Shown here in pieces: positions 14,179-57,641 of a stretch of DNA of 64,000 nt (positions are counted from its first letter, which is position 1; each line of letters begins with the position of its first letter). The stretch is taken from assembly GCA_003599235.1 (NCBI GenBank), contig QZJE01000013.1, forward strand, positions 540 to 64,539, written 5' to 3'. Source of the DNA: Actinomycetota bacterium (GTDB lineage: Bacteria; Actinomycetota; Aquicultoria; SURF-47). The translations under genes were made by a program, and so were the position numbers. Below the pieces are notes generated by a model that saw only the letters and a program-made list of their open reading frames with translations, was not told the DNA's origin and made no database searches.

Positions 14179-15636
14179 TTACTTTAGTTTCCTTGCATAT
14201 TCATTAAAATTAAGAGCTAAATTAATTGCTGATGTTGAAGTCACATTTTTGTTCCATAAACATTTTATTATAAAAATGTTTTTAGCAACATTAAATCCTA
14301 GCGTCTTGATAGTAAAAATAAAGCGTCCTTTAGAAAAAACGGTTTGTTTTTCGTTTCTACCTCTAACAAAAACTTTATTTCTCCAAAGGTTAGTAAATCT
14401 GGAATGCATTGAATTGTATTTATATAGATGTTTCAAGAGCCTGTTTCTCTCAGATTGCAATATCGTTGGAGAAATCTGCTTTGTCTGAAAGCAAACTTTT
14501 TCTCCATCATACTCATGCCATAGATTAGAAGTTATTCTTCCTTGACTAGCTAAACGCTCATATAACAAAGTACCAGGCGCAGGAGTGATTAAGTTAATCA
14601 TTGAAAAAGCTAAATTTGTATCCTTTATGAAGTTACTTGTTGCTTCAATAGTTGCAATGTCGTCATTGTCATTCCCTAACATAAATGATCCAATTACAGC
14701 TATCCCATTCTTATGTATTAGGTTAACAATCTCCTTATACTGTTCTACCTTATTAACTTTGCTTTTGTTTAATTCAAAAATACTCTCTTGTTTAACTGAT
14801 TCAAATCCTATAAAAACAGCCCTACAACCAGATTCATACATTAATTTAAGAAGCTGGCTGTCATTTAAACGATTTATTGCTGCTTGGCACCACCAACTAT
14901 TAATCTTAAGAGGAATGAGGTTTTTGAAAAGGCTTTTAGCAAACTCGGGTTTAGCCAACAAATTATCGTCTGCGAAAAAAATCATTTTTTTTGGGTCAAT
15001 AGCCCTTAAATAACGAATTTCCTCAATCACTGTATGCACTGACTTGTTTCTATATTTATGTCCATTAAAAGACCAAACAGAGCAAAAATCACAACTATTT
15101 GGGCAACCTCTTCCTACTTGGACAGTAAAATAACAATATTCATGAGTTTTGAGCAGATCCCACCTAGGAATTGGTGAATTAGTTAATGATGGGGGGGTTT
15201 TCATTCGATAAATTTTTTGTAGTTTGTTTTGCTTAAAATCATTAATTAACCCAGGCCAAAGTTCATCAGCCTCACCAATAACAATGCTGTCAGCATGCTT
15301 TATTGCTTCATCGGGTAACATTGAGACATGTATACCGCCTAGAACAACCTTAACCCCTCGTTTCATAAATTCATCTGCTATCTCGTATGCTCTCGGGGCT
15401 AGGGAAGTAAGAAAAGAAATTGCTACTAAATCAACTTGCTCCTCGAAATCAATGCGCTCAACAACTTCATCATTAATAATAACTTCAACCTCTGAAGGAG
15501 TTAGTGCTGCTAAAGTTGGGAGAGATAGGATAGTACCTCCTGCTTTTCTCCCAGTTATCTCTCTGACAGTTTTAAAATCCCAAAAACTCTCGCCCCATTC
15601 AGGCTTTCTGGCTGGAGCTATCAGTTTAATTTTCAT
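14179..15636 (-). CDS. B12-binding-domain radical SAM protein
   Basis: 485 aa. N-terminal B12-binding-like region; radical SAM cysteine triad CPNSCDFCSV. 4-bp overlap with the upstream gene. Confidence 0.75.
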   Translation of the reverse strand: MKIKLIAPARKPEWGESFWDFKTVREITGRKAGGTILSLPTLAALTPSEVEVIINDEVVERIDFEEQVDLVAISFLTSLAPRAYEIADEFMKRGVKVVLGGIHVSMLPDEAIKHADSIVIGEADELWPGLINDFKQNKLQKIYRMKTPPSLTNSPIPRWDLLKTHEYCYFTVQVGRGCPNSCDFCSVWSFNGHKYRNKSVHTVIEEIRYLRAIDPKKMIFFADDNLLAKPEFAKSLFKNLIPLKINSWWCQAAINRLNDSQLLKLMYESGCRAVFIGFESVKQESIFELNKSKVNKVEQYKEIVNLIHKNGIAVIGSFMLGNDNDDIATIEATSNFIKDTNLAFSMINLITPAPGTLLYERLASQGRITSNLWHEYDGEKVCFQTKQISPTILQSERNRLLKHLYKYNSMHSRFTNLWRNKVFVRGRNEKQTVFSKGRFIFTIKTLGFNVAKNIFIIKCLWNKNVTSTSAINLALNFNEYARKLK

Positions 15637-18746: not shown

Positions 18747-18774
18747 CTTGGTGCTTGGTTCTTGGTACTTGGTG
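18747..18774. repeat. Heptanucleotide tandem repeat CTTGGTN x4
   Basis: CTTGGTG CTTGGTT CTTGGTA CTTGGTG, perfect 7-nt period, ending 1 nt before the hicA stop codon. Confidence 0.85.
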
Positions 18775-18775
18775 C

Positions 18776-18997
18776 CTAGAGGAGCTTTTTAAGAGATTCT
18801 TTTTTTACATTTGCTCTTTTTAGAATAGCTTCTAATGTGCCCTTTTTTAAGTCTTTACTATGATAAGGAACAGGAATGGCTTTCTTAAGCTCTTCATTGA
18901 CCATAATTACATGACTACCAGTTTGGCGCTTAACATAGAAGCCAGATTTCTCTAGTACTTTAATTACCTGCTTCGGCCTTAAGGAAGGAGTTTTCAT
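18776..18997 (-). CDS. hicA: HicA-family toxin (mRNA interferase)
   Basis: 73 aa. Matches the HicA pattern K.LEK.GF...RQ.GSH......VP.H..KDL.KGTL..IL. Overlaps hicB by 4 bp. Confidence 0.8.
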   Translation of the reverse strand: MKTPSLRPKQVIKVLEKSGFYVKRQTGSHVIMVNEELKKAIPVPYHSKDLKKGTLEAILKRANVKKESLKKLL

Positions 18998-19212
18998 GCA
19001 GCAGTTATCTTTACATCAACTGTCTCTTCTTCTATCTTAGGTGGTTTCCAGCCCATTTCTTCCATAGTCTCAAGATACCCCTTGATAGCATCTTTGATAT
19101 TTTCTAAAGCCTCCTTTTTAGTGTCGCCCTCAGATACAACATCTGGAAGTTTTGGTACAAATACTGTATATCCACCTTCTTCTTGCCTTTCAAGTATCAC
19201 TTTGTATGTCAT
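18994..19212 (-). CDS. hicB: HicB-family antitoxin (UPF0150 fold)
   Basis: 72 aa. MTYKVILERQEEGGYTVFVPKLPDVVSEGDTKKEALENIKDAIKGYLE matches the HicB N-terminal consensus. RBS AGGAGGG upstream. Confidence 0.8.
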   Translation of the reverse strand: MTYKVILERQEEGGYTVFVPKLPDVVSEGDTKKEALENIKDAIKGYLETMEEMGWKPPKIEEETVDVKITAA

Positions 19213-19281
19213 TACTTTTCCCTCCTATAGTTATCATACCATAGCCTAGCTGGCATAACAAAGTAAAAAGGCTTGCTTCAC

Positions 19282-19295
19282 GGTCAACGGTCAAC
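19282..19295. repeat. Heptanucleotide tandem repeat GGTCAAC x2 (TTGACC family)
   Basis: GGTCAACGGTCAAC in the 335-bp intergenic region upstream of hicB. Confidence 0.6.
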
Positions 19296-19784: not shown

Positions 19785-21197
19785 TTACCCTACTTTTGCA
19801 GCACTTTCAATTCTTTTAATAGATTTTTGTTTTCCGAAAAGGACAAAAATATAGAAAAGTTCAGGGCCTTCTGTTTTGCCTGTTAAGGCGCACCTAACCG
19901 GCATAAAAACGTCCTTACCCTTAATCCCTTGTTCCTTCATCTCTTTGCTTAAGGATTTAAGTACTGCCCTGGCCTCATCGTTATTATCAACCCTACTGGC
20001 CCCCAAAACCTCAACTAATTTAGCTAACACAGCTTTAGAAGTATCTTTTTCCAACCACTGCTTAGCTTCCTTGGTTATCTTTAAGGGTTTAAAAAATAAC
20101 TCAGACTGCACTTTAGCATCGGCTAAAGTAATATAGTCGTCCCTGGTAGCCTCAACCATCTTAATTAACCATTCTCTGCTAACTTTCTTAACCTCATCCT
20201 TGGCAAGAAAGGGAATTGCCATCTGCGTTAACTCTTCTAAGGGATAACTTCTTATATGCTGACCGTTTATCCAGTTGAGTTTGCCTATATCGAAAATAGC
20301 AGGACTTTTTGATAATTTTTCTAAGCTAAAATACTGCATAAGTTCTTCCGGCTTAAATATTTCTTGTTCTCCAGCGGGAGTCCAGCTAAGCAATGCCAGG
20401 TAGTTAATAACAGCTTCATGCAGATAACCGGCTTCCCTATACTGAAAAACAGCGGTTGCTCCATGGCGCTTAGAGAGCTTACCACCATCACTGCCCATAA
20501 TAAGCGAGTGATGGGCAAACTTAGGAATATCGTATCCTAGAGCTTTAAATAAAAGGATGTGTTTAGGAGTATTAGGCAAATGATCATTTCCCCTGATAAC
20601 ATGGCTAATCTTCATTTCTGCGTCATCAACTACCACTGATAAATGAAAGGTGGGCATACCGTTGCCGCGCAAAATGATAAAGTCTTTTATATTTGCCGTA
20701 TCAAACTCAGTAGGGCCATAGACGATATCGTCAATGACTATTTTTTCTTTAGGAACCCTAAATCGTATGGCCGGATTTACTCCTTTAGCTGAAGCATCAA
20801 GTTGATCCCTGCCATCTAAACCCAAACAATTGCAAGTTTTTTTATTTACAGAATCGACTTTGGACTGCTCTCCACAATAACAATAATACGCCTTGCCGTC
20901 AGCAACTAGTTGTTTAGCTTTGCTTTTATAAAGTGATAACCTGCGGCTTTGACGGTAGGGGCCAAAGCCCCCTTTTCCCGGACCTTCGTCGTAGTTTAGG
21001 CCAAGCCAGCTAAGATCTTCTAAAATAGATTGCTCAAACTCCGGAGCCGACCTTAGAAAATCGGTATCTTCAATCCTAACTATAAAGTCGCCCCCATGAT
21101 GCTTAGCAAAAAGCCAATTGTACAAAGCAGTACGGGCTGAGCCTAAATGCAGGTTGCCAGTAGGAGAAGGAGCGAAGCGTACTCTTATATTACCCAT
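19785..21197 (-). CDS. gltX: Glutamyl-tRNA synthetase
   Basis: 470 aa. HIGH-type motif PSPTGNLHLGSARTA and KMSKS-type KLSKRHG. Confidence 0.9.
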   Translation of the reverse strand: MGNIRVRFAPSPTGNLHLGSARTALYNWLFAKHHGGDFIVRIEDTDFLRSAPEFEQSILEDLSWLGLNYDEGPGKGGFGPYRQSRRLSLYKSKAKQLVADGKAYYCYCGEQSKVDSVNKKTCNCLGLDGRDQLDASAKGVNPAIRFRVPKEKIVIDDIVYGPTEFDTANIKDFIILRGNGMPTFHLSVVVDDAEMKISHVIRGNDHLPNTPKHILLFKALGYDIPKFAHHSLIMGSDGGKLSKRHGATAVFQYREAGYLHEAVINYLALLSWTPAGEQEIFKPEELMQYFSLEKLSKSPAIFDIGKLNWINGQHIRSYPLEELTQMAIPFLAKDEVKKVSREWLIKMVEATRDDYITLADAKVQSELFFKPLKITKEAKQWLEKDTSKAVLAKLVEVLGASRVDNNDEARAVLKSLSKEMKEQGIKGKDVFMPVRCALTGKTEGPELFYIFVLFGKQKSIKRIESAAKVG

Positions 21198-21217
21198 TGA
21201 CCATTGACCTTTTACCC
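21197..21217. repeat. Heptanucleotide tandem repeat TTGACCA TTGACCT TTTACCC (TTGACC family)
   Basis: Fills the ispF-gltX intercistronic spacer and abuts the gltX ATG. Confidence 0.6.
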
Positions 21218-24022: not shown

Positions 24023-24113
24023 ATAATTGCACCACCCCTCGTATATTCATCTTTATCTAATTCCTGTTTCCTGTTGCCTGTATCCTGATATATAATTGCA
24101 ACCAGGAGGTAAT

Positions 24114-25598: not shown

Positions 25599-25620
25599 CC
25601 TTCAGCTCTTCAGTCTTCAG
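25599..25620. repeat. Short tandem repeat CTTCAG x3 (periods 8 and 7)
   Basis: CCTTCAG CTCTTCAG TCTTCAG, 20-40 nt upstream of the disA start. Confidence 0.5.
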
Positions 25621-25629
25621 TCTCTATCC

Positions 25630-26970
25630 TTACGTCAGGTACTCCATTGCTTGTTCTAACTTACTAACCCTGCATAACTTGATTTTCTCTGAGGTTTTTA
25701 CCTTCAGTTCTGGCATAATAATATTTTTAAAACCTAACTTGGAGGCTTCAATTACCCTTTGCTCAGTTGATGATACCTGGCGCAATTCCCCTGAGAGACC
25801 GATTTCTCCAAATGCTATTGTATCGGCAGAAAGCTTCTTATTCTTTAATGAAGAAGCAACAGCTAAGGCAATGCCGATATCAGCCCCAGCTTCACCAACC
25901 TTTAATCCGCCTGCTACATTAGCATAAACATCTTTGTTAGCCAGAGATAGCCCAACCCGTTTTTCTAGTACTGCAATTATAATAGCCAAGCGGTTATAAT
26001 CCAAGCCAGACACCTGTCTTCTGGGGTTAGAAAAATATGATGGAGTCACCAGAGCTTGCACTTCTACCAAGAGTGGCCTAGTTCCCTCGATGGTGGCTAC
26101 TACCACGGAACCGGGCTCACTTTGGCGCTGTGACAAAAATAACTGAGAAGGATTAGCTACCTCTACAAGCCCTGAATCCCGCATTTCAAAAACGCCCACT
26201 TCATTGGTTGAGCCAAAACGGTTTTTGTGCGCCCTGATTATCCGATAACTATGGCAGCTATCCCCTTCAAAATATAAAACGGTGTCGACTATATGCTCTA
26301 GCAGCCTGGGGCCGGCAATAGCACCCTCCTTTGTCACATGCCCTACTATAAAAACCGGTTTATTTAAATCCTTGGCGATTTTTAGCAGACGGGCTGTACA
26401 TTCCCTTATCTGGCTTACACTGCCGGGAGCAGAACTGACTTCGGGCAAAGACATCGTCTGAATCGAATCGATTATTATTATCTGAGGATTAACCGCTTTA
26501 ACCTGCTTGTCTATATATTCTAAGTTAGTTTCAGAAAGTACTAAGGTATTGTCGGATAGTGAGCCTACTCTTTGGGCTCGCATTTTAACTTGGTTGACTG
26601 ATTCCTCTCCGGATACTAAAAGAACCTTTTGGCCTTGATTAGAGACCTGTGATGCTAATTGCAAAAGAAGAGTGGATTTGCCGATTCCTGGTTGGCCGCC
26701 TAATAGTACAAGACTACCTGGGACAATGCCTCCGCCTAGTACCCGGTCGAGTTCGCTGATACCGGTTTTAGTCCGCTTGAAATTAACACTGTTTACTTCG
26801 GTAATTTTTTCAGGCTTAGAATAGTCTTTTTTATCATCGCTTGCACCTTTATAGAAGGTAAGTTCTTCAGCGAAGGTATTGTATTGCTCACAATCTGGAC
26901 AACGCCCCAACCACTGAGGCGAGATATAGCCGCATTGCCCGCATACAAAACCAGTAGCTACTTTACTCAT
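25630..26970 (-). CDS. radA: DNA repair protein RadA/Sms
   Basis: 446 aa. N-terminal zinc ribbon (CGQCGY...CPDC), Walker A GQPGIGKST, Lon-like C-terminus. Confidence 0.9.
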   Translation of the reverse strand: MSKVATGFVCGQCGYISPQWLGRCPDCEQYNTFAEELTFYKGASDDKKDYSKPEKITEVNSVNFKRTKTGISELDRVLGGGIVPGSLVLLGGQPGIGKSTLLLQLASQVSNQGQKVLLVSGEESVNQVKMRAQRVGSLSDNTLVLSETNLEYIDKQVKAVNPQIIIIDSIQTMSLPEVSSAPGSVSQIRECTARLLKIAKDLNKPVFIVGHVTKEGAIAGPRLLEHIVDTVLYFEGDSCHSYRIIRAHKNRFGSTNEVGVFEMRDSGLVEVANPSQLFLSQRQSEPGSVVVATIEGTRPLLVEVQALVTPSYFSNPRRQVSGLDYNRLAIIIAVLEKRVGLSLANKDVYANVAGGLKVGEAGADIGIALAVASSLKNKKLSADTIAFGEIGLSGELRQVSSTEQRVIEASKLGFKNIIMPELKVKTSEKIKLCRVSKLEQAMEYLT

Positions 26971-26998
26971 AAGTTAATAATAGCATAATGAGCAGGGG

Positions 26999-27023
26999 GT
27001 AGGTGGTAGGAAGTAGGGAGTAG
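26999..27023. repeat. Heptanucleotide tandem repeat GTAGGNN x4
   Basis: GTAG at 26999, 27006, 27013 and 27020, exactly 7 nt apart, ending at the clpC stop codon. GTAG is also the head tetranucleotide of the REP elements in this window. Confidence 0.7.
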
Positions 27024-29516
27024 TTACGACTTAGACTTACTTTTGGCTTTTTCTTTAGGGGCTTCAGTCTTTTTTTCGATAAAAACGATAGCCTTGTCTT
27101 TTACTTCACAGATTATCGTCTGGCCTGGCTTGTATTTGCCCTTTAAAAGCTCTTCAGATAAGGGATCTTCTACATAGCGCTGAATAGCCCGTCTCAATGG
27201 CCTAGCCCCGTAAGCTGGAGTATAGCCTTCTTTGGCTAAAAAGTTTTTAGCTTTAGGGCTTAACTCGACCTCAACTCCGCGCTCTTGTAATTGTCCCTGC
27301 ACCCTAGAAAACATCAATTCTACTATCCTTTTGATATTATCCTCGCTTAATTCTGAAAAGACGATAACGTCATCGATGCGGTTTAAAAACTCAGGGCGAA
27401 ATGTCTTCTTTAATTCTGCCGTAACTTTTTCCTTCATATCTTTATAAGAAACCGCCTTCGACTGTTTGCCAAAACCAAGTGATTGTCCTTTTTGAATATC
27501 CCTGGCCCCGACATTAGATGTCATGATGATGATGACATTTTTAAAATTAACCGTTCTACCCTGGGCATCTGTTAAGTGTCCATCTTCTAGAATCTGCAAA
27601 AGAATATTAAAAACATCCGGGTGGGCTTTTTCTATTTCATCGAATAAAATGACAGCGTATGGCCTTCTTCTAACTTGCTCGGTAAGCTGGCCGCCTTCTT
27701 CGTGGCCAACATAACCCGGAGGAGAGCCAATTAACCGGGAGACAGTATGCTTTTCCATATACTCACTCATATCAATTTGAATAAGCGAGCTTTCATCTCC
27801 AAACATATATTCTGCCAAGGCTTTGGCAAGCTCTGTTTTGCCAACCCCAGAGGGTCCTAAGAAAATAAAACTGCCAGATGGGCGCTTGGGATCATGCAAC
27901 CCTGCCCTTGATCGCCTAATGGCCCTAGAGACAGCAACAACAGCTTCATTCTGATCGATAATACGTTCATGTAAGCCGTCTTCCATTTTCAGCAACTTGC
28001 TAGTTTCTTCCTCAGTTAACTTAAACACCGGAATACCAGTCCAGGAGGAGACGATTTGAGCAATTTCTTCTTCAGTAACCTTGGTATCTTCTGCGTTTTT
28101 AGGAATCTTCCATTCTTTTTCCTTTTCCTTTTTATCTACCGTTAGTCTTTTTTCTTTATCCCTTAAAGCGGCTGCTTTTTCGAACTCTTGAGCCTCGATG
28201 GCTGCTTCTTTTTCGGTTCTTACATGTTTAATATTTTTTTCTAAAGCCTTAAAATCAGGTGGAGCCGTCATTAACTTAATACGCAACCTGGAAGCTGCTT
28301 CATCTACTAAATCAATGGCTTTATCAGGCAAAAAGCGGTCTGAGATATAGCGATCCGACATATTTGCCGCTGCAATTAAAGCCTCGTCAGTAATAGCTAT
28401 GCCGTGATGAGCCTCATAGCGATCACGCAAGCCCATTAATATATCTACCGTCTCAGCCACTGAAGGCTGGCCAACTTGAACCGGCTGAAAACGCCGCTCC
28501 AAAGCAGCATCTTTTTCGACATGTTTGCGGTATTCGTCTAAGGTAGTAGCCCCGATGGTTTGTAATTCTCCACGGGCTAAAGCCGGTTTTAGAATACTGG
28601 CGGCATCTATTGCTCCTTCAGCTGCTCCTGCCCCTACCAGATTATGCATCTCATCAATGAATAAGATGACATCCCCGCGGCTAGTTATCTCTTTGATAAC
28701 TTTTTTAAGCCGCTCCTCGAACTCCCCGCGGTATTTTGAGCCGGCAACTAAAGCTCCAAGGTCAAGAGTAAAAATACTTTTGTTTTTTAAGATTTCCGGC
28801 ACTTCGTTTCTGGCAATAGCTTGAGCTAGTCCTTCGACGATAGCGGTTTTTCCTACTCCTGGCTCACCGATTAATACCGGATTGTTCTTAGAGCGCCTGG
28901 ATAGTATCTGCATTACCCGCTCAATTTCTTTTTCCCTGCCGATTACAGGATCGAGCTTACTCTCGGTTGCCAGGCGGGTTAAGTTTCTTCCGTATTCATC
29001 AAGCATACCGCCTTTAGAAGCAAAAGTTTTTTTAGATGCCGGGCTGGTTGCAGAGCCACTTTCGGCAGCTGAGCCGGTATAGTATCCGCTTAACAGCTCG
29101 ATTACCTGGCTTCTTACTTTTTCTAAATCTGCTCCCAGATTAGTCAGCACCCGGGCAGCGATGCCTTCGCCTTCGCGAATAAGCCCTAATAAGATATGTT
29201 CGGTTCCAATATAGTTGTGCCCAAGCTGCAAAGATTCCCGTAATGACAGCTCGAGGACTTTTTTAGCTCTAGGAGTAAAAGGAATGTGGGCCGAAGGGGT
29301 AGAAGTACCTTTGCCGATGATATCTTCGACCTGGGTACGAACATCTTCTAAATTAATGCCTATATTTTTTATGGCCCGAGCGGCGATGCCTTCTTCTTCG
29401 CGAATAAGCCCCAGTAAAAGATGCTCGGTGCCGATATAGTTCTGGTTAAGCATCCTGGCTTCTTCTTGAGCATATACAACCACTCTTCTGGCTTTTTCGG
29501 TAAACCGCTCAAACAT
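27024..29516 (-). CDS. clpC: ATP-dependent Clp protease ATP-binding subunit ClpC
   Basis: 830 aa. Duplicated Clp_N repeats, two AAA+ modules ([16 protein letters not shown]), UVR-like linker. Confidence 0.9.
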
Positions 29517-29526
29517 TTAAACCCCC

Positions 29527-29556
29527 GTTGTTCGAACTTTGAACTTCGTTGTTCGT
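29527..29556. promoter_or_regulatory. Direct repeat CGTTGTTCG (n12) CGTTGTTCG with internal GTTCGAAC palindrome, 11-40 nt upstream of clpC
   Basis: Two identical 9-mers 21 bp apart in the 49-bp mcsB-clpC spacer. Confidence 0.35.
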
Positions 29557-29565
29557 TATCTAATT

Positions 29566-30555
29566 TTACAGCTTTAACTTCATCCTTACCAATTCTGCCC
29601 GGTTAACTTCTTCTTGACTTTCGTTTAAGGCTTTTCTGGCTCTTGTCTGCAAATGCCCAGACCTTATTGTTGTCGACAAATTATCGATTTTCTTTAAGGT
29701 TTTCCTTTGACCATACAATCCGAGATCTATTCCCATACGCAAGATAGATAGATAATCTATAGCCTCATCATATGAAAGTAGTTTGGCATAACGCAGCACA
29801 GCTATTGCCCGCTCTACCTTATCAGTAAGCCACAGTTTATCTTTTGATATCATCTTTTCCCGATTTTGTATCTCTTTAGCCTCCAGGTAATTTATCTCAT
29901 TTTTGATATTGTTAATTATCTGCTGCTCAGAAGAACCAGTGCTGACGTTAGTTTCGAAAAAGAAATAATGACCGCAAGCCAAGGTGCCAACGCCAAAAAC
30001 AGGGCGAGTAAATATTCTCTTTTCCACTAAAGCCCTAATTATCTCCGGCATTTGTTTAGACATAGTTAAAGCTGGTAGATGAAGCACTGAAGCTACTTTG
30101 AGTCCTGTTCCGGCTTTAGTGGGACAGGCTGTTAGAAAACCAATTTCTGTATCAAAAGCAAACTCTAACTTTTTACCAAGTTTGTCATCGAGTGTTGATG
30201 TCATTTTCCAAACACTGTCTAAATCCTTGCCTGGCCGGATAACCTGGATAACTAAATGGTCATCTTCATTGATTAAAAAAGATATGTCTTTTGTACAAGC
30301 CAGAGCGCTTCCCTCATAGTTGTTTGCATAAAAAGCCTCAGTGATAAGCCCCTTTTCTAAAAACACTCTTTTCTTAAGAGCTGTTAATTTATCCCACTTA
30401 AAAATCTTTAAATCCAACCCCAAATCATTTAAGGCATTATTAATATGTTTAAAGATAACCAGACTTTCCTTTTTATCTAACGAATTAGAAAAAGGATAAT
30501 TGGAAAGATTGCGATGCAGGCGGACACGGCTTTTTAAAACAATAGAAGGTTTCAA
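29566..30555 (-). CDS. mcsB: Protein arginine kinase McsB (ATP:guanido phosphotransferase family)
   Basis: 329 aa. Phosphagen-kinase-like CPTKAGTGLK motif. Positioned between mcsA and clpC. Confidence 0.75.
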   Translation of the reverse strand: MKPSIVLKSRVRLHRNLSNYPFSNSLDKKESLVIFKHINNALNDLGLDLKIFKWDKLTALKKRVFLEKGLITEAFYANNYEGSALACTKDISFLINEDDHLVIQVIRPGKDLDSVWKMTSTLDDKLGKKLEFAFDTEIGFLTACPTKAGTGLKVASVLHLPALTMSKQMPEIIRALVEKRIFTRPVFGVGTLACGHYFFFETNVSTGSSEQQIINNIKNEINYLEAKEIQNREKMISKDKLWLTDKVERAIAVLRYAKLLSYDEAIDYLSILRMGIDLGLYGQRKTLKKIDNLSTTIRSGHLQTRARKALNESQEEVNRAELVRMKLKL

Positions 30556-30563
30556 GGGTAATT

Positions 30564-31082
30564 TTAGGCTTTAGTTAGCTTTTCCTTTACAGTGTTAATT
30601 TTGTCTCTGATAAGAGCTGCTGCTTCGTAATTTTCTTGGGAAATAAGCGAGAAAAGCTCATTTTTAAGAGCTTTTAACTCAGTATTTAAGACATACGTTA
30701 CCGGCGCCCAGACAGGAATCTTGCCCTTATATTCCAGACTACCGTGCATTTCTTCCAGTAAAGGGCGAAGTTGCTGACCAAAAAACTGATAACAGTTTGG
30801 ACATCCCAGTAAGCCTGTTTGCATAAAATCAGCAAAAGAAAGCTGGCATTTAGGACACATTTTAAAATTGCTTAAGCGCTCGGGGTAGAACTCCTTATCG
30901 TTTAAGCAATTGAAATAGCTGTCTAAAGGCAGATTCTGGCTATTAATGGAGATTTTAAGGGAGAACGCTTTAAGACAATCTTCACACAAAGAGAACTTAG
31001 TTACCTCACTACCCTCGATTTTAGTAACCCAAGCGCTTGCTACCTTTTTATGACATTGCTCACACATTACCTGTTTATTCAT
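30564..31082 (-). CDS. mcsA: McsA-like protein (zinc-finger N-terminus plus UvrB/UvrC motif)
   Basis: 172 aa. Four CxxC pairs and C-terminal LKALKNELFSLISQENYEAAALIRDKI UVR motif. Confidence 0.7.
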   Translation of the reverse strand: MNKQVMCEQCHKKVASAWVTKIEGSEVTKFSLCEDCLKAFSLKISINSQNLPLDSYFNCLNDKEFYPERLSNFKMCPKCQLSFADFMQTGLLGCPNCYQFFGQQLRPLLEEMHGSLEYKGKIPVWAPVTYVLNTELKALKNELFSLISQENYEAAALIRDKINTVKEKLTKA

Positions 31083-31103
31083 TGCTACTATTATACTACA
31101 AAG

Positions 31104-32585
31104 TTATTTTTCGGGCCTAAGATGAGGAAATAAAATAACGTCCCTTATCGAATAAGAATCTGTTAGGAGCATTATCAGACGGTCGACGCCAATTCCTAAA
31201 CCACCGGCCGGTGGCATACCGTATTCTAGTGCCCGCAAAAAATCCTCGTCTAGCTGACGGTCGACTACTTCCTTGCTTTCTATCTTTAACTGCTGTTCAA
31301 AACGCTTTCTCTGCTCGATAGGATCAGTTAGCTCTGAGAAAGCATTAGCAATTTCCCTTTGAGCAATAATTAACTCAAAACGTTCTGTAACATTAGGATC
31401 ATTCCTATCTCTTCTGGCTAAAGGCGAGACTTCCACCGGAAACTCCGTTATAAAAGTAGGTTGGAATAAATGGTGTTCGACATTTTTTTCAAAAATAGCG
31501 TTGATTATCTTGCCTTTCCCCCACTCTTTATCTGCCGGGGCACCGGCTTGCTTAGCCGCTTTTCTTAAATCGTTAAGGCTATCTTCGTAAGTTAAGTCTA
31601 ACTTAGAGTATTTCTTGATAGCTTCAAGCATAGTTAAGCGCTCAAACTTCTTTCCAAAATCCAGCTCTTGCTCCTGATAAGTAACCTTAGTATCTCCGGT
31701 AGCTTCAAGAGCCATAGTTTTAATAAGTTCTTCTGTCAAAGCCATCATATCTTCGTAATCGCCGTAAGCCTGATAGGCTTCCAGCATAGTAAACTCCGGG
31801 TTATGGCGAACTGACAAACCTTCGTTACGAAAATTACGTCCTAACTCAAAAACCTTCTCATAGCCGCCTACCAATAAGCGCTTAAGATAAAGCTCAGGAG
31901 CGATGCGTAGATATAAATTAGTATCGAGTGCATTATGAAAAGTCTTAAAAGGCCTAGCAGTTGCCCCACCATATATTTGTTGCAAAACAGGGGTATCCAC
32001 TTCTATAAAATCCCGGTTAATAAAGAAATCACGCAATGACTTAATAGCTTTTTCGCGAATAGCAAAGACCTGTTTAACATCAGGATTCATAATGAGATCC
32101 GTGTAGCGTTGGCGATACCTTATCTCCACATCCTTTAAACCATGCCATTTCTCCGGCAGAGGACGCAAAGACTTGGTAAGTAAAGTAAAGCTTTTGGCTT
32201 TTATCGAAAGCTCACCGCGCCTAGTCTTAAAAACTTCTCCATTAACACCAACAATGTCGCCAATATCTAAGTGAGAAAAAAGGTTGTATTGTTCCTCCCC
32301 CAGCACATCTAGGGCAAGATACAGCTGGATAGAGATATTGTTTTCAGCTAAATCAGCAAAGGAAGCTTTGCCATGACGTCTTAAAGCCATTAGACGGCCG
32401 GCTACAGAAAAGTACTTGTTAGATGACTCTTCGGGTTCTAGTTTTTCGTATTGGTTAATTAAATCAGCAATTTGAGCAGTGCGCTTAAAATTGTAAGCAA
32501 AAACAGGTATCCCCTGATTGGTAAGGGTTTCAAGCTTTTTTCTGCGTTGCTGCATTAATTGATTTAGCGGTATATCAGCCATCAT
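31104..32585 (-). CDS. lysS: Lysyl-tRNA synthetase, class II
   Basis: 493 aa. Class II motifs ([15 protein letters not shown]). Confidence 0.9.
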
Positions 32586-32621: not shown

Positions 32622-35600
32622 CTATTTCACTATCAGCCAATTACTAGCCACTCTAGCCTGAGTATTACCAGCCCTGTCTGTAGCTAACACGTAATATCTG
32701 TACTTGCCTCTTTTAAGTCTTATCCTTATTCTCTTGACTTTCAGCTTATTGATTGCCGTTAAACCCAGTCTAATTGTTTTATAAGTTTTTAAGTAGACTC
32801 TCTTTTTGCCCCTTATTTTCTTAACTGCCTTTTTCTTTATTACTAAAGATACTTTAGCTTTACTCGATAGCGAGTCAGCTACTTTCCAATAGAGTTTAGC
32901 TATTTTTCCTCTTCTAACAACAGATTTTTTAGGAGCATAGGTCTTTGGTTTAGTGTTATCTACCGTAACCATCTGAGTTATTTGGTTTTCGTTTCCTAAG
33001 ATGTCTCTTACAACATATATTAGCTGATGAGGACCATCATTAATGCCTCTAGTGTCCCAGGTAACCGATTTTGCCCCGCTACCTACAGCTGAAGTTGCCG
33101 GATCATCAATGTAGACCGTAAAGGAGCCTATACCACTAGCATCAACAAATGACGGGGACAATACTACTTTGCCTTTTACTAACTGACCTTCTGATAAGGT
33201 ACTCATAGCTAGAGTTGGAGGAGTAGTATCATAGTTATAAACAAATGTTTGCCAAGGACTTACGTTTCCTACATTATCTGTCGCCCTTACTTTAAAGTAG
33301 AAAGTGCCGTCTGAAGGTACTGATACTTCAGGATAAGTGTTAGACTCTGCGCTATCGGTAGGAACATCTCCATTGATATTATTGCCGAAGTAAATATCAT
33401 AGCGGCTAAAACCGCTGCCTTTGTTGCCGTCTTTAGAAGCTTCCCAATAAAAGCTTGGAGCTTGATTATTTGTCCAGCTCCCACTAGCTATTCCGTGAGT
33501 CTCGATAATTGTGCCTGGAGTACTTGGAGCTGACGGATCACATTTATAGGTAAAAACCGTTTCAGCAGCAGTTTCATTGCCAGCCTTGTCTTTTACCTTA
33601 ACTCTTAGATAATATGTTCCCTCAGCTGTTATCTTGCCCGGCTCTAATAGATTAGAAGTTAAATAACCGGTGGTTGCTGTTTGAGTAGCTGAAGGTGTCC
33701 CATTTGGGTTAGTGCCGAAATAATAAGTATATCCTTCAATTCCGCTAGAGGTATCTTGCCAGTTCAGTTCAAACGAAGGGTTGCTTTCAGCAGTAAAAAC
33801 ATCACTTTCTACATTATTGTTTTCTATTACAGCAACATCTTGTTTTTCCGGTGCAGTTATGTCAGCACGATAGATAAATTCCCTCCAACCACTGGTCTTG
33901 CCAGCTAAGTCTTTAGATCTAACCTTTAAGTGATAGATGCCATCTTCGCTGATTGATGGAGGAGTAAAACTACGGTTGTTTATAGCCGTCGACTCAAAAG
34001 GAGGAGTGGGAATCTCATCGGTATCCCAAGATATTTCATACTCAGCTAAGCCGGATGTTCCACCAGCTGGCTCATCCCAGATAAAGCTGGGGTTGGTTCT
34101 CTTTGTCCAAGGATCATTGTTAGCTATTCCATGGATTTCAGTAATTGCTCCTGGCTCAGAAGGAAGAACTGAAGAAAACCTATAGATAAAAATCTCTGCC
34201 GGAGAGCTTACATTGCCGGCATTATCAATAGCTACTACTTTTAGAAAATAAGTGTTATCAGCCGTTATTATAGGCGGCTGAAAAGTGTTGCCGCTGATTG
34301 GAGTGCTTGGAACCTGAGAAGGATCTGTGCCCCAGTAAACTCTATAACCAGCAACAGAACTTGTTTCATCAATCCAGTTAAACCTAAAAGAAGGATTGAT
34401 AAGTGAGGTATAGCTGCCGCTTTCTGTGCCATGAGTTTCTTCAATAGCAGCCATCCCTTCCATAGGTTTAGGTGTTTCAACATCTGCATTATAACGATAT
34501 GTTTTTGGATCTGATATATTCCCGGCTGTATCTTTTACCCATACCTTAAGATAATATGAACCATCTTCATCTATGGTGGGGTTAAAAGTTTGCTCGATTT
34601 GATCAGGCTGATTAGGTATTAAAGCAGTTGGATTTGTTCCCCAATATATTCTATAAGTATCTAGTCCGCTAATATTGCAATCAGAGCTTAAGTAGAAATT
34701 AGGGCTTATGTTATTTGACCATGGACCATTATCGGGTACATCTGCCGTTATATTATTCATGATTGGCTTGGAGGCGTCATACTTAAAGACAAATACAGTT
34801 TCGGTAGCTGCTTGGTTACCGGCATTGTCTTTAGCTCTAACTCGCAGGTAGTAAGTACCTTCAGTTGTCAGGGCAGCCGGGTCAATGGTGGTTCCGGTTA
34901 CATAAGTTGCAGGAGTGCCAGATGAGCTAGGGCCGAAATAATAGGTGTAGCCGGCAAGGCCGCTCTCATCATCGTCACCGTTTAACTCAAAGCATGGATC
35001 AGCGTTGTTAGTCCACTCATTATCTACTACTGCGTGGGTCTCCATTGCAGTTCCGTTTGTTGGAGAGCTAACATCGGCTCTATATGTAAAAATATCTGAC
35101 CAAGCACTTACTCTTCCAACATTATCTATCGCCCTTATCCTTAAATAATAAACACCGCTTTCAGATAAGGTAGCCGGTGTAAACGTAGAGTTATTTACAT
35201 TATCATACGGAGGAGGACACAAAGAATCAGTTCCAAAATAAACGTCGTAGCTCTCGATTCCGCTACCACTATCAGTTGAGTTAGCCCATGAAAAACTAGG
35301 ATTGTTGATATTGGTTACAGGGTCATTGCTATTATAGCCATGAATCTCTGTAATAGAGATAGGCTTTGTGGGAGCATTTCCATCGTATTTATATATATAC
35401 TGTTCAACGGCACTTTCTTTGCCGGTATTATCTCTTGCTTTTACTTTTAAGTAATAAGTGCCCTCAGCTGTAAGCGGGCTAGGTGTAAAATTATTACTGG
35501 TTGTTTCAGCAGCTGGAGTCCCGGCACTGTCAGGACCAAAGTAATAGATATATTTCTGAATACCGCTTTCATTATCTTCCCAATTAAATCTAAAACTAGG

Positions 35601-36674
35601 ATTATTTTTACTTGTCCAGGTTTCGCTCTCAATACCGCTTGTCTCTTCAATGGCATCTTTTCCCGTTATGACATCAGGTGGCAGAGTATCTACAATATAG
35701 GTTCGATTAACTGTAGCCACATTATTAGCCCTGTCATAAGCAGTATATGTAACCGTATGAGCTCCGTTGCTGGCAGCATCAGTAGGCACAACCCAGGAAT
35801 GGTTAAAAGGATACCCTGTAATCTCGATATTATCATCATCAATAACAAAAGCAGTTCTATCATAATCCAAGCCTGAATCCTCTTCATGAGGCTGGATTGT
35901 AAAATTTACCGAGCCGCTAACCAAGCTGTTATCTGCGGGGCCGGTAAAGTCAACTGTGGGAGCAGTTGTATCGTTTGCAAAATTATCACTGCCTTTAAAA
36001 ATAGCATTGCCAAATGTGCTGGGACTATATAATGAAGAGCCACTTGGCCATACCCCAGCATAACTAGGAGTTTGTACAGTTTCACCTACAGACAAGCCAA
36101 ATGTTTTACTTGTAGTAGATGTAAGGCCTAATTTAGAAAAATATATCTTAAACTCGGCTTCCCAATAAGTTGAACCAACAATTCTCTTGGCGCTCCATTT
36201 GTTGGTTGTCTCACTCGAGTAAGTAACACTGGTATTGTAGCCATACCCATTTCCTTTAGCTTCAATATTTTCTCCATCAGATTTTCTGATAGTAAGCATG
36301 TAATCGCTACTGTCAGCTGAATTGCCATTATGGTTTAGATCTAAGCCAATCCTGGCAAAGTTGTTAGAAGAATTGCCGCCGTCAGGGATATAGAATCCAA
36401 CGTACAAATAACTTCCGTTTGTTTTAAAATAAGCACATCCCTGTTGGCCGGTAACAGTAGTAAAATATGCTCTTTTTTCCCCGCTAGCAGTATCTGTCCA
36501 TTCGTTTACACTAGGGTCTATATTTCCATCATAGGTAACAGTTGTTCCACTACTAATATTTGCTCTACTTAAAGCATCGTCGTGAGCAAAAGAAATTGAG
36601 GGAAACATGGCAGCGGGAATTAAATTTAAGACTAAAACCAAAGATATTAACGAAGCTATTGTCTTCCTTATCAT
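32622..36674 (-). CDS. Large secreted surface protein with about nine FN3/Ig-like repeats and a Lys/Arg-rich C-terminal module
   Basis: 1350 aa. Signal peptide. Repeated motif YYFG.....TP......T...P..L..EGTYYL.V.A.DNAGN. C-terminal ~110 aa alignable with the C-terminus of the 8719..11436 protein. Confidence 0.8.
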   Translation of the reverse strand: MIRKTIASLISLVLVLNLIPAAMFPSISFAHDDALSRANISSGTTVTYDGNIDPSVNEWTDTASGEKRAYFTTVTGQQGCAYFKTNGSYLYVGFYIPDGGNSSNNFARIGLDLNHNGNSADSSDYMLTIRKSDGENIEAKGNGYGYNTSVTYSSETTNKWSAKRIVGSTYWEAEFKIYFSKLGLTSTTSKTFGLSVGETVQTPSYAGVWPSGSSLYSPSTFGNAIFKGSDNFANDTTAPTVDFTGPADNSLVSGSVNFTIQPHEEDSGLDYDRTAFVIDDDNIEITGYPFNHSWVVPTDAASNGAHTVTYTAYDRANNVATVNRTYIVDTLPPDVITGKDAIEETSGIESETWTSKNNPSFRFNWEDNESGIQKYIYYFGPDSAGTPAAETTSNNFTPSPLTAEGTYYLKVKARDNTGKESAVEQYIYKYDGNAPTKPISITEIHGYNSNDPVTNINNPSFSWANSTDSGSGIESYDVYFGTDSLCPPPYDNVNNSTFTPATLSESGVYYLRIRAIDNVGRVSAWSDIFTYRADVSSPTNGTAMETHAVVDNEWTNNADPCFELNGDDDESGLAGYTYYFGPSSSGTPATYVTGTTIDPAALTTEGTYYLRVRAKDNAGNQAATETVFVFKYDASKPIMNNITADVPDNGPWSNNISPNFYLSSDCNISGLDTYRIYWGTNPTALIPNQPDQIEQTFNPTIDEDGSYYLKVWVKDTAGNISDPKTYRYNADVETPKPMEGMAAIEETHGTESGSYTSLINPSFRFNWIDETSSVAGYRVYWGTDPSQVPSTPISGNTFQPPIITADNTYFLKVVAIDNAGNVSSPAEIFIYRFSSVLPSEPGAITEIHGIANNDPWTKRTNPSFIWDEPAGGTSGLAEYEISWDTDEIPTPPFESTAINNRSFTPPSISEDGIYHLKVRSKDLAGKTSGWREFIYRADITAPEKQDVAVIENNNVESDVFTAESNPSFELNWQDTSSGIEGYTYYFGTNPNGTPSATQTATTGYLTSNLLEPGKITAEGTYYLRVKVKDKAGNETAAETVFTYKCDPSAPSTPGTIIETHGIASGSWTNNQAPSFYWEASKDGNKGSGFSRYDIYFGNNINGDVPTDSAESNTYPEVSVPSDGTFYFKVRATDNVGNVSPWQTFVYNYDTTPPTLAMSTLSEGQLVKGKVVLSPSFVDASGIGSFTVYIDDPATSAVGSGAKSVTWDTRGINDGPHQLIYVVRDILGNENQITQMVTVDNTKPKTYAPKKSVVRRGKIAKLYWKVADSLSSKAKVSLVIKKKAVKKIRGKKRVYLKTYKTIRLGLTAINKLKVKRIRIRLKRGKYRYYVLATDRAGNTQARVASNWLIVK

Positions 36675-39503: not shown

Positions 39504-39797
39504 AGCCTCAAGCAGTAAGCTGTAAGCTTATGGCTCATAGCTTCAACCACTTACCCCTCTTAACCAGGCATTTAAATCGTTTATTTTTAAAAAAACATCA
39601 TATTTTCTAATTTTATGGGTAAAAACAATAACCGTAGCTATTGATAATTAACGGAGGTTGCAATTTCTCATATTGATTTTCCTGATGGGGTAATACCTTT
39701 TACTTATTGCATAATCGGCTTTGTTTTAGCCGGCATTGTACTAGCTGTTTGCACGCGTAACACTGAAAGCAAATTAGTTAGAAAAAAGGTTCCTTTA

Positions 39798-51312: not shown

Positions 51313-51372
51313 AAATTACAAATCGTAAATTCCAAATTACAAATAATATCGAAATTCAAAATTCCAAACATT
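51313..51372. repeat. AT-rich heptanucleotide tandem repeat AAATTNC, about 8 units
   Basis: AAATTAC AAATCGT AAATTCC AAATTAC AAATAAT (atcg) AAATTCA AAATTCC AAACATT in the 135-bp spacer between the two transketolase subunit genes. Confidence 0.7.
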
Positions 51373-53158: not shown

Positions 53159-53224
53159 GGTCAACGGTCAATGGTCAACGGAAGTAATATTTTACTTTGA
53201 CCTTTAACCTTTACCCTTTGCCCT
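53159..53224. repeat. Inverted pair of heptamer arrays: GGTCAAC GGTCAAT GGTCAAC (53159-53181) and TTGACCT TTAACCT TTACCCT TTGCCCT (53197-53224)
   Basis: Strict 7-nt period. The second array overlaps the last codons and stop of prfB; the first lies 17-40 nt upstream of the PHP gene start. Confidence 0.8.
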
Positions 53225-57059: not shown

Positions 57060-57641
57060 CTATTGCCTAAATGACCCATTGACCGTTGACCGTCTTTTTC
57101 CTCTATATACCATGCAATTTTGCAGATAAAGAAAAGCACCGATGGTAATAAATACATCCCCGGCACTAATAAGGCTAGGCAGAGGATAGGGTTTGGGAAT
57201 TGGGATTATGTCAGCTAAAAAGGGAAGACGCGTTTTAGCAGTTAGAATAACGTGCTTGTAGTCAGTTAGAAAAGATTTTTTAAAGGCGCTTAGGTCTTCG
57301 CCAATAAAAGCTGCTGATTTAGCAGATACCGGCATGCCCCCGTTTAGGGCAATTACGACAAAATTTAAAGTAGCTCCGATAGCTATCAGCAACAAAAAAT
57401 TATTCTCTTTTCCGTTTATAAAACTAGCAAATATCAACAGAGCGTATGTTGCCAAAAGAAGTGCAAAATTACTAACGGCAGGCATTGGCAAGCTGGCCCC
57501 AAAAAAAACCAATCCAACCTGGATAAATAAAGCGATGATAATAAGATAGTCGAAGCGGATTCTTATGGTATCAAGCCTGGATAGCGAGCCTCCCCTAAGA
57601 TAGCCCACCACAATCGCTAGCACCACCCCTAGCTCAATCAT
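57060..57641 (-). CDS. Hypothetical polytopic membrane protein
   Basis: 193 aa, about five TM segments. The 3' end of the ORF contains a TTGACC heptamer array. Confidence 0.5.
   Translation of the reverse strand: MIELGVVLAIVVGYLRGGSLSRLDTIRIRFDYLIIIALFIQVGLVFFGASLPMPAVSNFALLLATYALLIFASFINGKENNFLLLIAIGATLNFVVIALNGGMPVSAKSAAFIGEDLSAFKKSFLTDYKHVILTAKTRLPFLADIIPIPKPYPLPSLISAGDVFITIGAFLYLQNCMVYRGKRRSTVNGSFRQ
57072..57092. repeat. Heptanucleotide tandem repeat TGACCCA TTGACCG TTGACCG (TTGACC family)
   Basis: Within the last codons of the 57060..57641 ORF, about 190 nt upstream of secA. Confidence 0.6.

Follow-up and report, generated by a model that had tools for sequence, protein, structure and literature searches.

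Short tandemly repeated repetitive (STRR) sequences of heterocystous cyanobacteria (Calothrix/Nostoc) are built of heptanucleotide units, namely CCCCAGT, TTGGTCA, and CAACAGT. In many bacterial genomes, heptanucleotide units form the most abundant class of long simple-sequence repeats (SSRs), for which slippage of the polymerase was put forward as the source (Mrazek et al. 2007, as cited in PMC4679880 and PMC4692102). Such heptameric long SSRs include GGGAATC in Xanthomonas and GGGGA(C/T)T in Nostoc (PMC4692102; PMC4679880). The Nostoc heptamers GAC(C/T)AAT/TTTTGAA have been studied, and eight copies of GAC(C/T)AAT are located at the start of recO (bioRxiv 10.1101/2022.06.06.494920). In marine Beggiatoaceae, TAACTGA direct repeats of 2-6 copies lie just upstream of start codons, almost all in one orientation (PMC4679880). 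Heptads may also serve as protein-binding sites: the omega (ParB) protein of pSM19035 binds heptad arrays cooperatively, and at least four contiguous heptads are needed for full activation of the ParA ATPase (PMC9499535).

Here, we analyzed a stretch of 64,000 nucleotides (hereafter, the window) from an Actinomycetota MAG near Ca. Aquicultoria. Nearly all of its genes are on the minus strand. Based on Pfam matches, one string of genes comprises lysS, mcsA, mcsB, clpC, radA, disA, carD, PIN/TRAM, ispD, ispF, and gltX, and another comprises an HD-domain gene, DUF5317, secA, prfB, PHP, tktN, and tktC; a secG-like ORF, followed by hicB and hicA, is found downstream of gltX. A preliminary description of this DNA had reported TTGACC/GGTCAA heptamers in tandem at four gene boundaries. 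All of these arrays were found in the sequence with a strict 7-nt period, including the inverted degenerate array at the prfB-PHP junction. Six additional arrays with non-TTGACC units, which had been missed, were also detected (at 18747, 24061, 25607, 26994, 39510, and 51313-51344), and the complete set of 11 is listed in Table 1.

Table 1. Period-7 arrays in the window, with their units on the strand given, a second reading where available, and their surroundings
Array	Position	Strand	Units	Second reading	Surroundings
prfB-PHP spacer	53159..53181	-	GTTGACC ATTGACC GTTGACC (mRNA sense)	+ strand, 53159-53181: GGTCAAC GGTCAAT GGTCAAC	ends 16 nt ahead of PHP ATG (53142); supplies TGA in all three frames
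prfB end	53195..53224	-	GGGCAAA GGGTAAA GGTTAAA GGTCAAA (mRNA sense)	+ strand, 53195-53224: CTTTGAC CTTTAAC CTTTACC CTTTGCC	degenerate, inverted partner of the 53159 array; codes for final six RF2 codons (..AKGKG); includes prfB TAA stop (53206-53204)
ispF-gltX	21194..21216	-	GGTAAAA GGTCAAT GGTCAAT GG	+ strand, 21197-21216: TTGACCA TTGACCT TTTACC	from ispF TAA (21214-21212) to gltX ATG (21197-21195); fills the entire 14-nt spacer
hicB upstream	19280..19295	-	GTTGACC GTTGACC GT	+ strand, 19282-19295: GGTCAAC GGTCAAC	67 nt upstream of hicB start; 18 nt upstream of predicted -35 (TTGTTA-17-TATGAT)
DUF5317 tail	57072..57093	-	GGTCAAC GGTCAAT GGGTCAT	+ strand, 57072-57092: TGACCCA TTGACCG TTGACCG	in final 11 codons of DUF5317 gene (stop 57062-57060), past the Pfam domain match; 175-195 nt ahead of secA start
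post-hicA	18747..18773	-	ACCAAGT ACCAAGA ACCAAGC ACCAAG	+ strand: CTTGGTN x4	begins 2 nt past hicA stop; ends 10 nt before predicted -35 (TTGCCA-17-TACAAT)
carD-divergent	24061..24081	+	TTCCTGT TTCCTGT TGCCTGT		between divergent carD (-) and a 137-aa ORF (+); 14 nt before the ATG of this ORF (24096)
radA-disA	25607..25623	-	AGACTGA AGACTGA AGA	+ strand: CTTCAGT x2.4	6 nt past radA stop, 27 nt ahead of disA start
clpC-radA	26994..27023	-	CTACTCC CTACTTC CTACCAC CTACCCC CT	+ strand: AGGNNGT x4.3	adjoins clpC stop; 23 nt ahead of SD-less radA start
divergent intergenic	39510..39528	.	AAGCAGT AAGCTGT AAGCT	consensus AAGCWGT	
tktN-tktC	51313..51344	-	GTAATTT/GGAATTT-type units	custom scan: AAATTMC at 51327	within 135-nt tktN-tktC spacer; faces AAATTAC/AAATCCC-type units further upstream in it

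The TTGACC/GGTCAA arrays are confirmed as real and non-random, and the preliminary claim that they lie far from chance was borne out. In the 64-kb window, the 13-mer TTGACCNTTGACC has five exact matches; when one mismatch is allowed, eight matches were found against 0.21 expected, a count reached by none of 100 dinucleotide shuffles. With up to two mismatches, the number rose to 14 against 3.9 expected, and the additional matches were at background level. The TTGACC hexamer occurs 46 times compared with 30 ± 5 expected. Its surplus consists of array copies only, and hence it is the tandem arrangement that is non-random. A self-match scan for periods 4-15 detected 11 period-7 arrays in the window versus approximately 1.5 in Markov shuffles, while every other period was at background; this census covers the 64-kb window. 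Consistently, 11 of the 26 rows reported by Tandem Repeats Finder (TRF) have period 7. A strict head-to-tail register of 7 nt is evident in the sequence, in TRF, and in our custom scan. The arrays typically contain 2-4 units, the largest having 4.6 units by TRF or about 4.3 by the custom scan. They fall into about seven unit families, several of them unrelated, within 64 kb. The commonest family is TTGACCN/GGTCAAN, which accounts for five of the 11 arrays with one hexamer core in common. Thus, the recurrence of TTGACC at the four boundaries is real, but this motif is one family within a general period-7 excess, which some relatives show with other units, rather than a special one. Units of the same array tend to differ from each other in only one or two columns, so that they read as "hexamer + N" (P ≈ 0.03-0.05), which is weak evidence of a constrained core.

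All 11 arrays are located in spacers or in the final ~11 codons of an ORF, while just 7.4% of the annotated region is non-coding. In five cases, the array touches a stop codon or is no more than 6 nt past one, compared with 1.5 cases under random non-coding placement (P=0.012). With respect to transcription, two arrays of the TTGACC family are TTGACC-sense (before hicB and PHP) and three are GGTCAA-sense (at gene ends). The coordinates given previously were all confirmed. The array at gltX fills the ispF-gltX spacer; the ATG is located within a GGTCAATG unit and has no canonical Shine-Dalgarno (SD) sequence. The array that had been placed upstream of secA does precede that gene, but lies inside the end of the DUF5317 gene. 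When the sequences on either side of the five TTGACC arrays were compared by eye, nothing in common was seen outside the units, and a larger mobile element surrounding the arrays was rejected on this basis. No regulon-like logic was found to link the genes at the four TTGACC loci. Stop codons in all reading frames are provided by the TTGACC-sense and AGACTGA arrays but not by ACCAAGN and CTACTCC, and a general function as all-frame stops was therefore rejected.

Several other features of these genes were also observed. The prfB gene (54311-53204, minus strand) contains the programmed +1 frameshift site in its classical form, CTT TGA C (54245-54239), with AAGGA ahead of it, and its ATG overlaps the secA TGA (ATGA, 54311-54308) within a single GGTCAATGA unit. 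The hicB/hicA toxin-antitoxin pair (18776-19212, minus strand) is located between the secG-like 74-aa ORF and an acyl-CoA synthetase gene and has a heptamer array on either side (19280 and 18747), each belonging to a different family; a HicB-like gene is also present directly after gltX-secG in one of the related loci (L496, see below). The region 27024-32585 (minus strand) carries a Firmicutes-style lysS-mcsA-mcsB-clpC-radA-disA cluster in this Actinomycetota MAG, and the same gene order was found in three relatives (L495-L497). The radA start (26970) has no SD sequence (region 26960-27035, minus strand), and the 53-nt clpC-radA spacer, which contains a C/U-rich array, is predicted to have almost no structure (-0.7 kcal/mol). 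A giant ORF of more than 2,918 codons (1-~8720, minus strand) continues beyond the first position of the window; since its N-terminus is signal-peptide-like (MRVRRLTALTICFCLLF...), the product is probably a huge surface protein. In addition, a 1,350-aa Ig-like repeat protein is encoded at 32622-36674.

With the broad class of heptanucleotide SSR/STRR-like repeats, the window arrays share the strict period, the period-7 excess, the non-coding location, and the presence of several families. The resemblance to cyanobacterial heptanucleotide STRR repeats that had been noticed earlier holds, and the host is indeed not cyanobacterial. As in STRR sequences, strict 7-nt units are arranged head to tail, several families occur per genome, the arrays are intergenic, and overlap with a start codon is possible; a single base separates the window unit (A/G)TTGACC from the other strand of STRR2 (AATGACC). 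However, STRR arrays occur in cyanobacteria and extend to dozens of units compared with 2-4 here, and the window arrays are found more at stop than at start codons. Therefore, the window arrays are not STRR sequences in the strict sense, which implies a cyanobacterial host, STRR1-3 units, and long arrays. The Xanthomonas and Nostoc SSRs likewise show an intergenic period-7 excess, a conserved core with variable positions, and occasional inverted pairs, and their length variation between related strains may have a counterpart in the one-unit indel described below, but the window units are not G-tract or quadruplex-forming, and the window is a 64-kb sample only. Similar to TAACTGA of Beggiatoaceae, the arrays are short, a dominant heptamer recurs at many junctions, and some arrays replace a recognizable SD sequence. 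In contrast to that system, in which a single orientation immediately before starts is the rule, orientation in the window is mixed, a stop-codon bias is present, and gltX is the sole gene whose start falls within an array. The omega/ParB operators of pSM19035 are likewise built from contiguous 7-bp units, some direct and others inverted; however, they have the consensus WATCACW and are located at plasmid promoters, and full ParA ATPase activation takes at least four contiguous heptads, whereas the window arrays have a different unit and are chromosomal, intra-operonic, shorter, and interrupted by a gap, and do not qualify as operators of this type.

Several specific identities were examined and rejected. 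A sigma-70 promoter has a -35 box TTGACA with a -10 hexamer 16-18 nt downstream. No suitably spaced -10 was found on the coding strand for any array TTGACC; the single promoter match of an array TTGACC is antisense and weak (9/12), and promoter-like counts were below the shuffle mean. The CtsR operator of Firmicutes is a GGTCAAA direct repeat with copies about 10 bp apart, upstream of clp or ctsR genes. The window shares with it the GGTCAA core and has an mcsA-mcsB-clpC cluster, but the spacing here is 7 nt, as the preliminary description had correctly emphasized, no array is located upstream of mcsA or clpC, and lysS rather than ctsR precedes mcsA. Finally, a structured RNA or terminator was rejected. 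The inverted pair at the prfB-PHP junction has 21-nt arms with 76% complementarity and a fold of -22.1 kcal/mol (z=-1.9), while the other array spacers have z values of -0.3 to -1.7 relative to shuffles (-1.6 for the tkt spacer). No Rfam 15 match at gathering score and no tRNA were found in the whole window, and neither U-tract terminators nor terminator-like sites were found at the arrays.

We then compared the window with fetched loci that have its gene order (L-numbered loci). The nearest relatives show 55-64% amino-acid identity, and the named ones include Ca. Oleimmundimicrobium, Ca. Aquicultor, and Subteraquimicrobiales (class Ca. Aquicultoria). Array richness is patchy among these syntenic relatives, ranging from array-rich to array-free. 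Nine period-7 arrays per 21 kb were detected in L081, L082, and L083, six in L086 (Ca. Oleimmundimicrobium sp.), three in L088, and one or two in L495, L496, and L497; no period-7 arrays were found in L085 and L089 (Aquicultor). In L081, the set includes four copies of GGGTCAA past the secA stop, within a 520-nt spacer. This secA-prfB spacer (8507-9028) consists almost wholly of consecutive arrays with the units GGGTCAA, GGACGAA, GAGCRGA, GGGAGTN, and NAWCTGT, and in L083 (773-925) a run of N falls exactly at the GGACGAA array.

Conservation in related genomes, which the preliminary description had put forward as a check, is thus partial. A GGGTAAA array overlaps the prfB stop in the window as well as in L086 (Ca. 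Oleimmundimicrobium) and L087, and in L003 (Ca. O. americanum) the stop codon of gltX falls within a GGGTAAN array. Unit families are also common to different genera: 19 pairs were found at ≤1 mismatch versus 8.1 ± 2.8 under a composition-matched null (P ≈ 0.002), and three exact pairs versus 0.56 expected, although these pair counts are partly non-independent; stop- or SD-like contexts acting as common seeds may account for part of this sharing. On the other hand, some relatives are array-free and the units at orthologous spacers differ. The tktN-tktC spacer is enlarged and repeat-rich in four genomes, but with AAATTCC, AGGATTA, or TAACGAA as the unit, and the ispF-gltX junction has GGTCAAT in the window versus GAACCCT in L496. 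In the latter genome, 3.5 copies of GAACCCT (15296-15340) are located inside the annotated 5' end of gltX, with a predicted 12-residue N-terminal tail (MMSPNPEPRTLNS...), which indicates that heptamer arrays can be translated at protein termini. According to the preliminary description, arrays that were neither conserved nor positionally biased would have had to be dismissed; instead, both a stop-codon bias and a partial recurrence of families and positions in relatives were observed.

A closer view of array turnover is provided by L081 and L082, which are 99.69% identical over 17.5 kb. The only indel that separates them is a GGACGAA unit of an array, and the surrounding 9 kb show no other difference. 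This isolated event would fit the gain or loss of whole units but could also be an assembly difference. All 48 substitutions between the two loci are in HD-domain genes and ctpB (L081 3429-4768 and 15188-15716). Because they cluster in two genes, a comparison of substitution rates between arrays and genes is uninformative, and their distribution is more readily understood as strain mosaicism or recombination than as uniform divergence.

To place these arrays in a wider context, we examined unrelated loci that had been fetched as GltX-encoding (best GltX identity 48%) and that amount to 1.37 Mb from many phyla. Period-7 arrays occurred at 4.1 per 64 kb in this sample, compared with 1.9-2.8 for periods 5, 8, and 10, and the excess was concentrated in a few loci: 14 arrays were found in Saccharibacteria L048 and eight in Omnitrophota L054, and Patescibacteria L067, Spirochaetia L042, and Nitrospiria L037 (with CTTGACC units) are array-rich as well. 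In L048, L054, L037/L030 (Nitrospiria), L067, and L042, there is usually one dominant family in both orientations, and inverted pairs 20-160 nt apart are frequent in the array-rich unrelated loci. A metagenome scan for (TTGACCN)3 returned more than 120 contigs with a GC content of 0.35 to 0.71. In 80 such contigs that were fetched, 77 non-target period-7 arrays were detected versus about 35 per period at 5, 8, and 10. Those matches with few ORFs may be eukaryotic. In particular, an identical (AGGTCAA)3 is present on many contigs from a few samples (L092-L170), in DNA with very few ORFs, and may represent a dispersed eukaryotic repeat rather than a bacterial one. In IMG/VR phage contigs, (TTGACCN)3 was found at 47 loci, compared with 35 and 49 for TTGACC at periods 8 and 10; for the permuted hexamer TGTCAC, there were 41 loci with period 7 and 92 with period 8, and for TCGATC there were 21. 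Phage DNA therefore favours neither the TTGACC motif nor period 7, and TTGACC was rejected as a universally special heptad. The enrichment is hence limited to particular lineages and does not reflect a universal motif.

Our preferred explanation, to which we attach a little more belief than doubt, is that the arrays are STRR-like heptanucleotide simple-sequence repeats that grow and shrink unit by unit and survive only where frameshifts are harmless. Both slippage as the cause and the near-neutrality of the arrays are what we infer here. A short spacer sequence would be duplicated in 7-nt register, and the resulting array would gain or lose whole units via slipped-strand mispairing at replication. 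Since a 7-nt indel is a frameshift, arrays would persist only in spacers, behind stop codons, in front of ribosome-binding sites, or in dispensable codons at gene ends. They would be mainly mutational by-products that set spacer length, with incidental use as the gltX start codon, the final codons and stop of RF2, the DUF5317 tail, and the all-frame TGA before PHP. Duplication and slippage, filtered by selection against frameshifts, would account for the diverse units, the mixed orientation, the patchy occurrence in relatives, and the turnover of units at orthologous spacers. Nevertheless, independent slippage on random seeds does not predict one hexamer core in five of 11 arrays, nor does slippage explain the above-null sharing of families between genera or a unit length of 7 instead of 5 or 8. 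Also counting against it are the tendency of within-array variation to fall in a few columns and the GGGTAAA-type array found at the prfB stop in both the window and Ca. Oleimmundimicrobium and at the gltX stop of L003. The indel of a whole unit, as mentioned above, is one event and possibly an assembly difference. The unexplained recurrence of units, the family sharing, and the length of 7 keep sequence-specific readings alive.

Among these, the arrays could be cis-acting mRNA sites in which each 7-nt unit is bound by one subunit of a single-strand RNA binder, such as a cold-shock-domain protein, S1, or a HutP-like ring protein, that tunes the coupling between termination and reinitiation or the translation of the gene that follows. 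We consider this unlikely, though deserving of real weight. Such a role would suit the exact placement of arrays in intercistronic spacers with a bias to the stop codon, the gltX start within an array in place of a canonical SD sequence, the SD-less radA behind its unstructured C/U-rich array, the use of one unit at several junctions and of common families in several genera, and the few variable columns. Similar proposals have been made for TAACTGA of Beggiatoaceae (PMC4679880) and for the heptamers upstream of Nostoc recF/recO (bioRxiv 10.1101/2022.06.06.494920). However, the TTGACC unit occurs in both sense orientations and would present two different sequences to a single-strand binder, a separate binder would be required for each of at least seven unrelated units, close syntenic relatives are array-free, and no candidate binder was found.

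By analogy with omega/ParB of pSM19035, the arrays might instead be double-stranded DNA operators on which a small dimeric protein, either a global regulator or a nucleoid protein, would polymerize along 7-bp heptads. The strict 7-bp spacing, the presence of both direct and inverted units between prfB and PHP, and the recurrence of one unit at four spacers all agree with this possibility, independence of orientation suits a double-stranded reader, and cooperative binding of omega to heptad arrays is a precedent (PMC9499535). Yet there are just 2-4 units per array, a 16-nt gap separates the 53159 and 53195 arms, most arrays are intra-operonic after stops and not at predicted promoters, the unit is unlike WATCACW, and the genome has many other families. 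HicB (72 aa), judged from its translation only, also seems too short for a DNA-binding domain. Overall, we find such operators decidedly improbable.

We give still less credence, a very small chance, to the suggestion that paired inverted arrays form transcript hairpins or DNA cruciforms acting as terminators, RNase sites, or 3'-end stabilizers, in analogy to REP/BIME elements or inverted uptake sequences. Inverted pairs do occur at 53159/53195 and in the tkt spacer, as well as in L054, L030, L052, L133, L164, L143, and L161, in some cases between convergent genes, but neither the prfB-PHP nor the tkt-spacer fold goes significantly beyond shuffles, U-tract terminators were not found, and most window arrays are unpaired direct repeats. 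Finally, a common hexamer that clusters by chance, or an artefact of assembly, might be suspected from the shortness of the arrays (2-4 units) and the background level of the additional two-mismatch matches. This reading is effectively refuted by the shuffles and the period scan, by the independent detection of the excess in TRF and the custom scan, and by similar arrays in independent assemblies of relatives, and its probability is negligible.

The heptanucleotide excess has been known since 1990 and 2007 without an accepted cause or function. The arrays reported here belong to this known but mechanistically unexplained class of repeats, and what is new is the lineage, in which the class had not been described. 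It is quite unlikely, although somewhat less so than double-stranded operators, that they were left behind by a sequence-specific system reading or writing DNA seven nucleotides at a time. Such a system may take the form of an oligomeric nucleic-acid-binding protein with one subunit per heptad and a few families (GGTCAAN, GGGTAAA, GGGAGTN, AGGATTA, and others), or of a dedicated unit-adding activity. If true, it would account for the recurrence of families across Ca. Aquicultoria genera and for look-alikes in cyanobacteria, CPR (candidate-phyla-radiation) bacteria, Omnitrophota, and Nitrospirota, and it would provide a molecular cause for the bacterial heptamer excess. The arrays also have a value for annotation, as they explain odd short terminal tails (RF2, DUF5317, and the GltX of L496) and start or stop codons embedded in repeats. 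With this study, the phenomenon extends to a deep-branching, uncultivated actinobacterial lineage, in which array-rich and array-free syntenic relatives offer a useful natural contrast.
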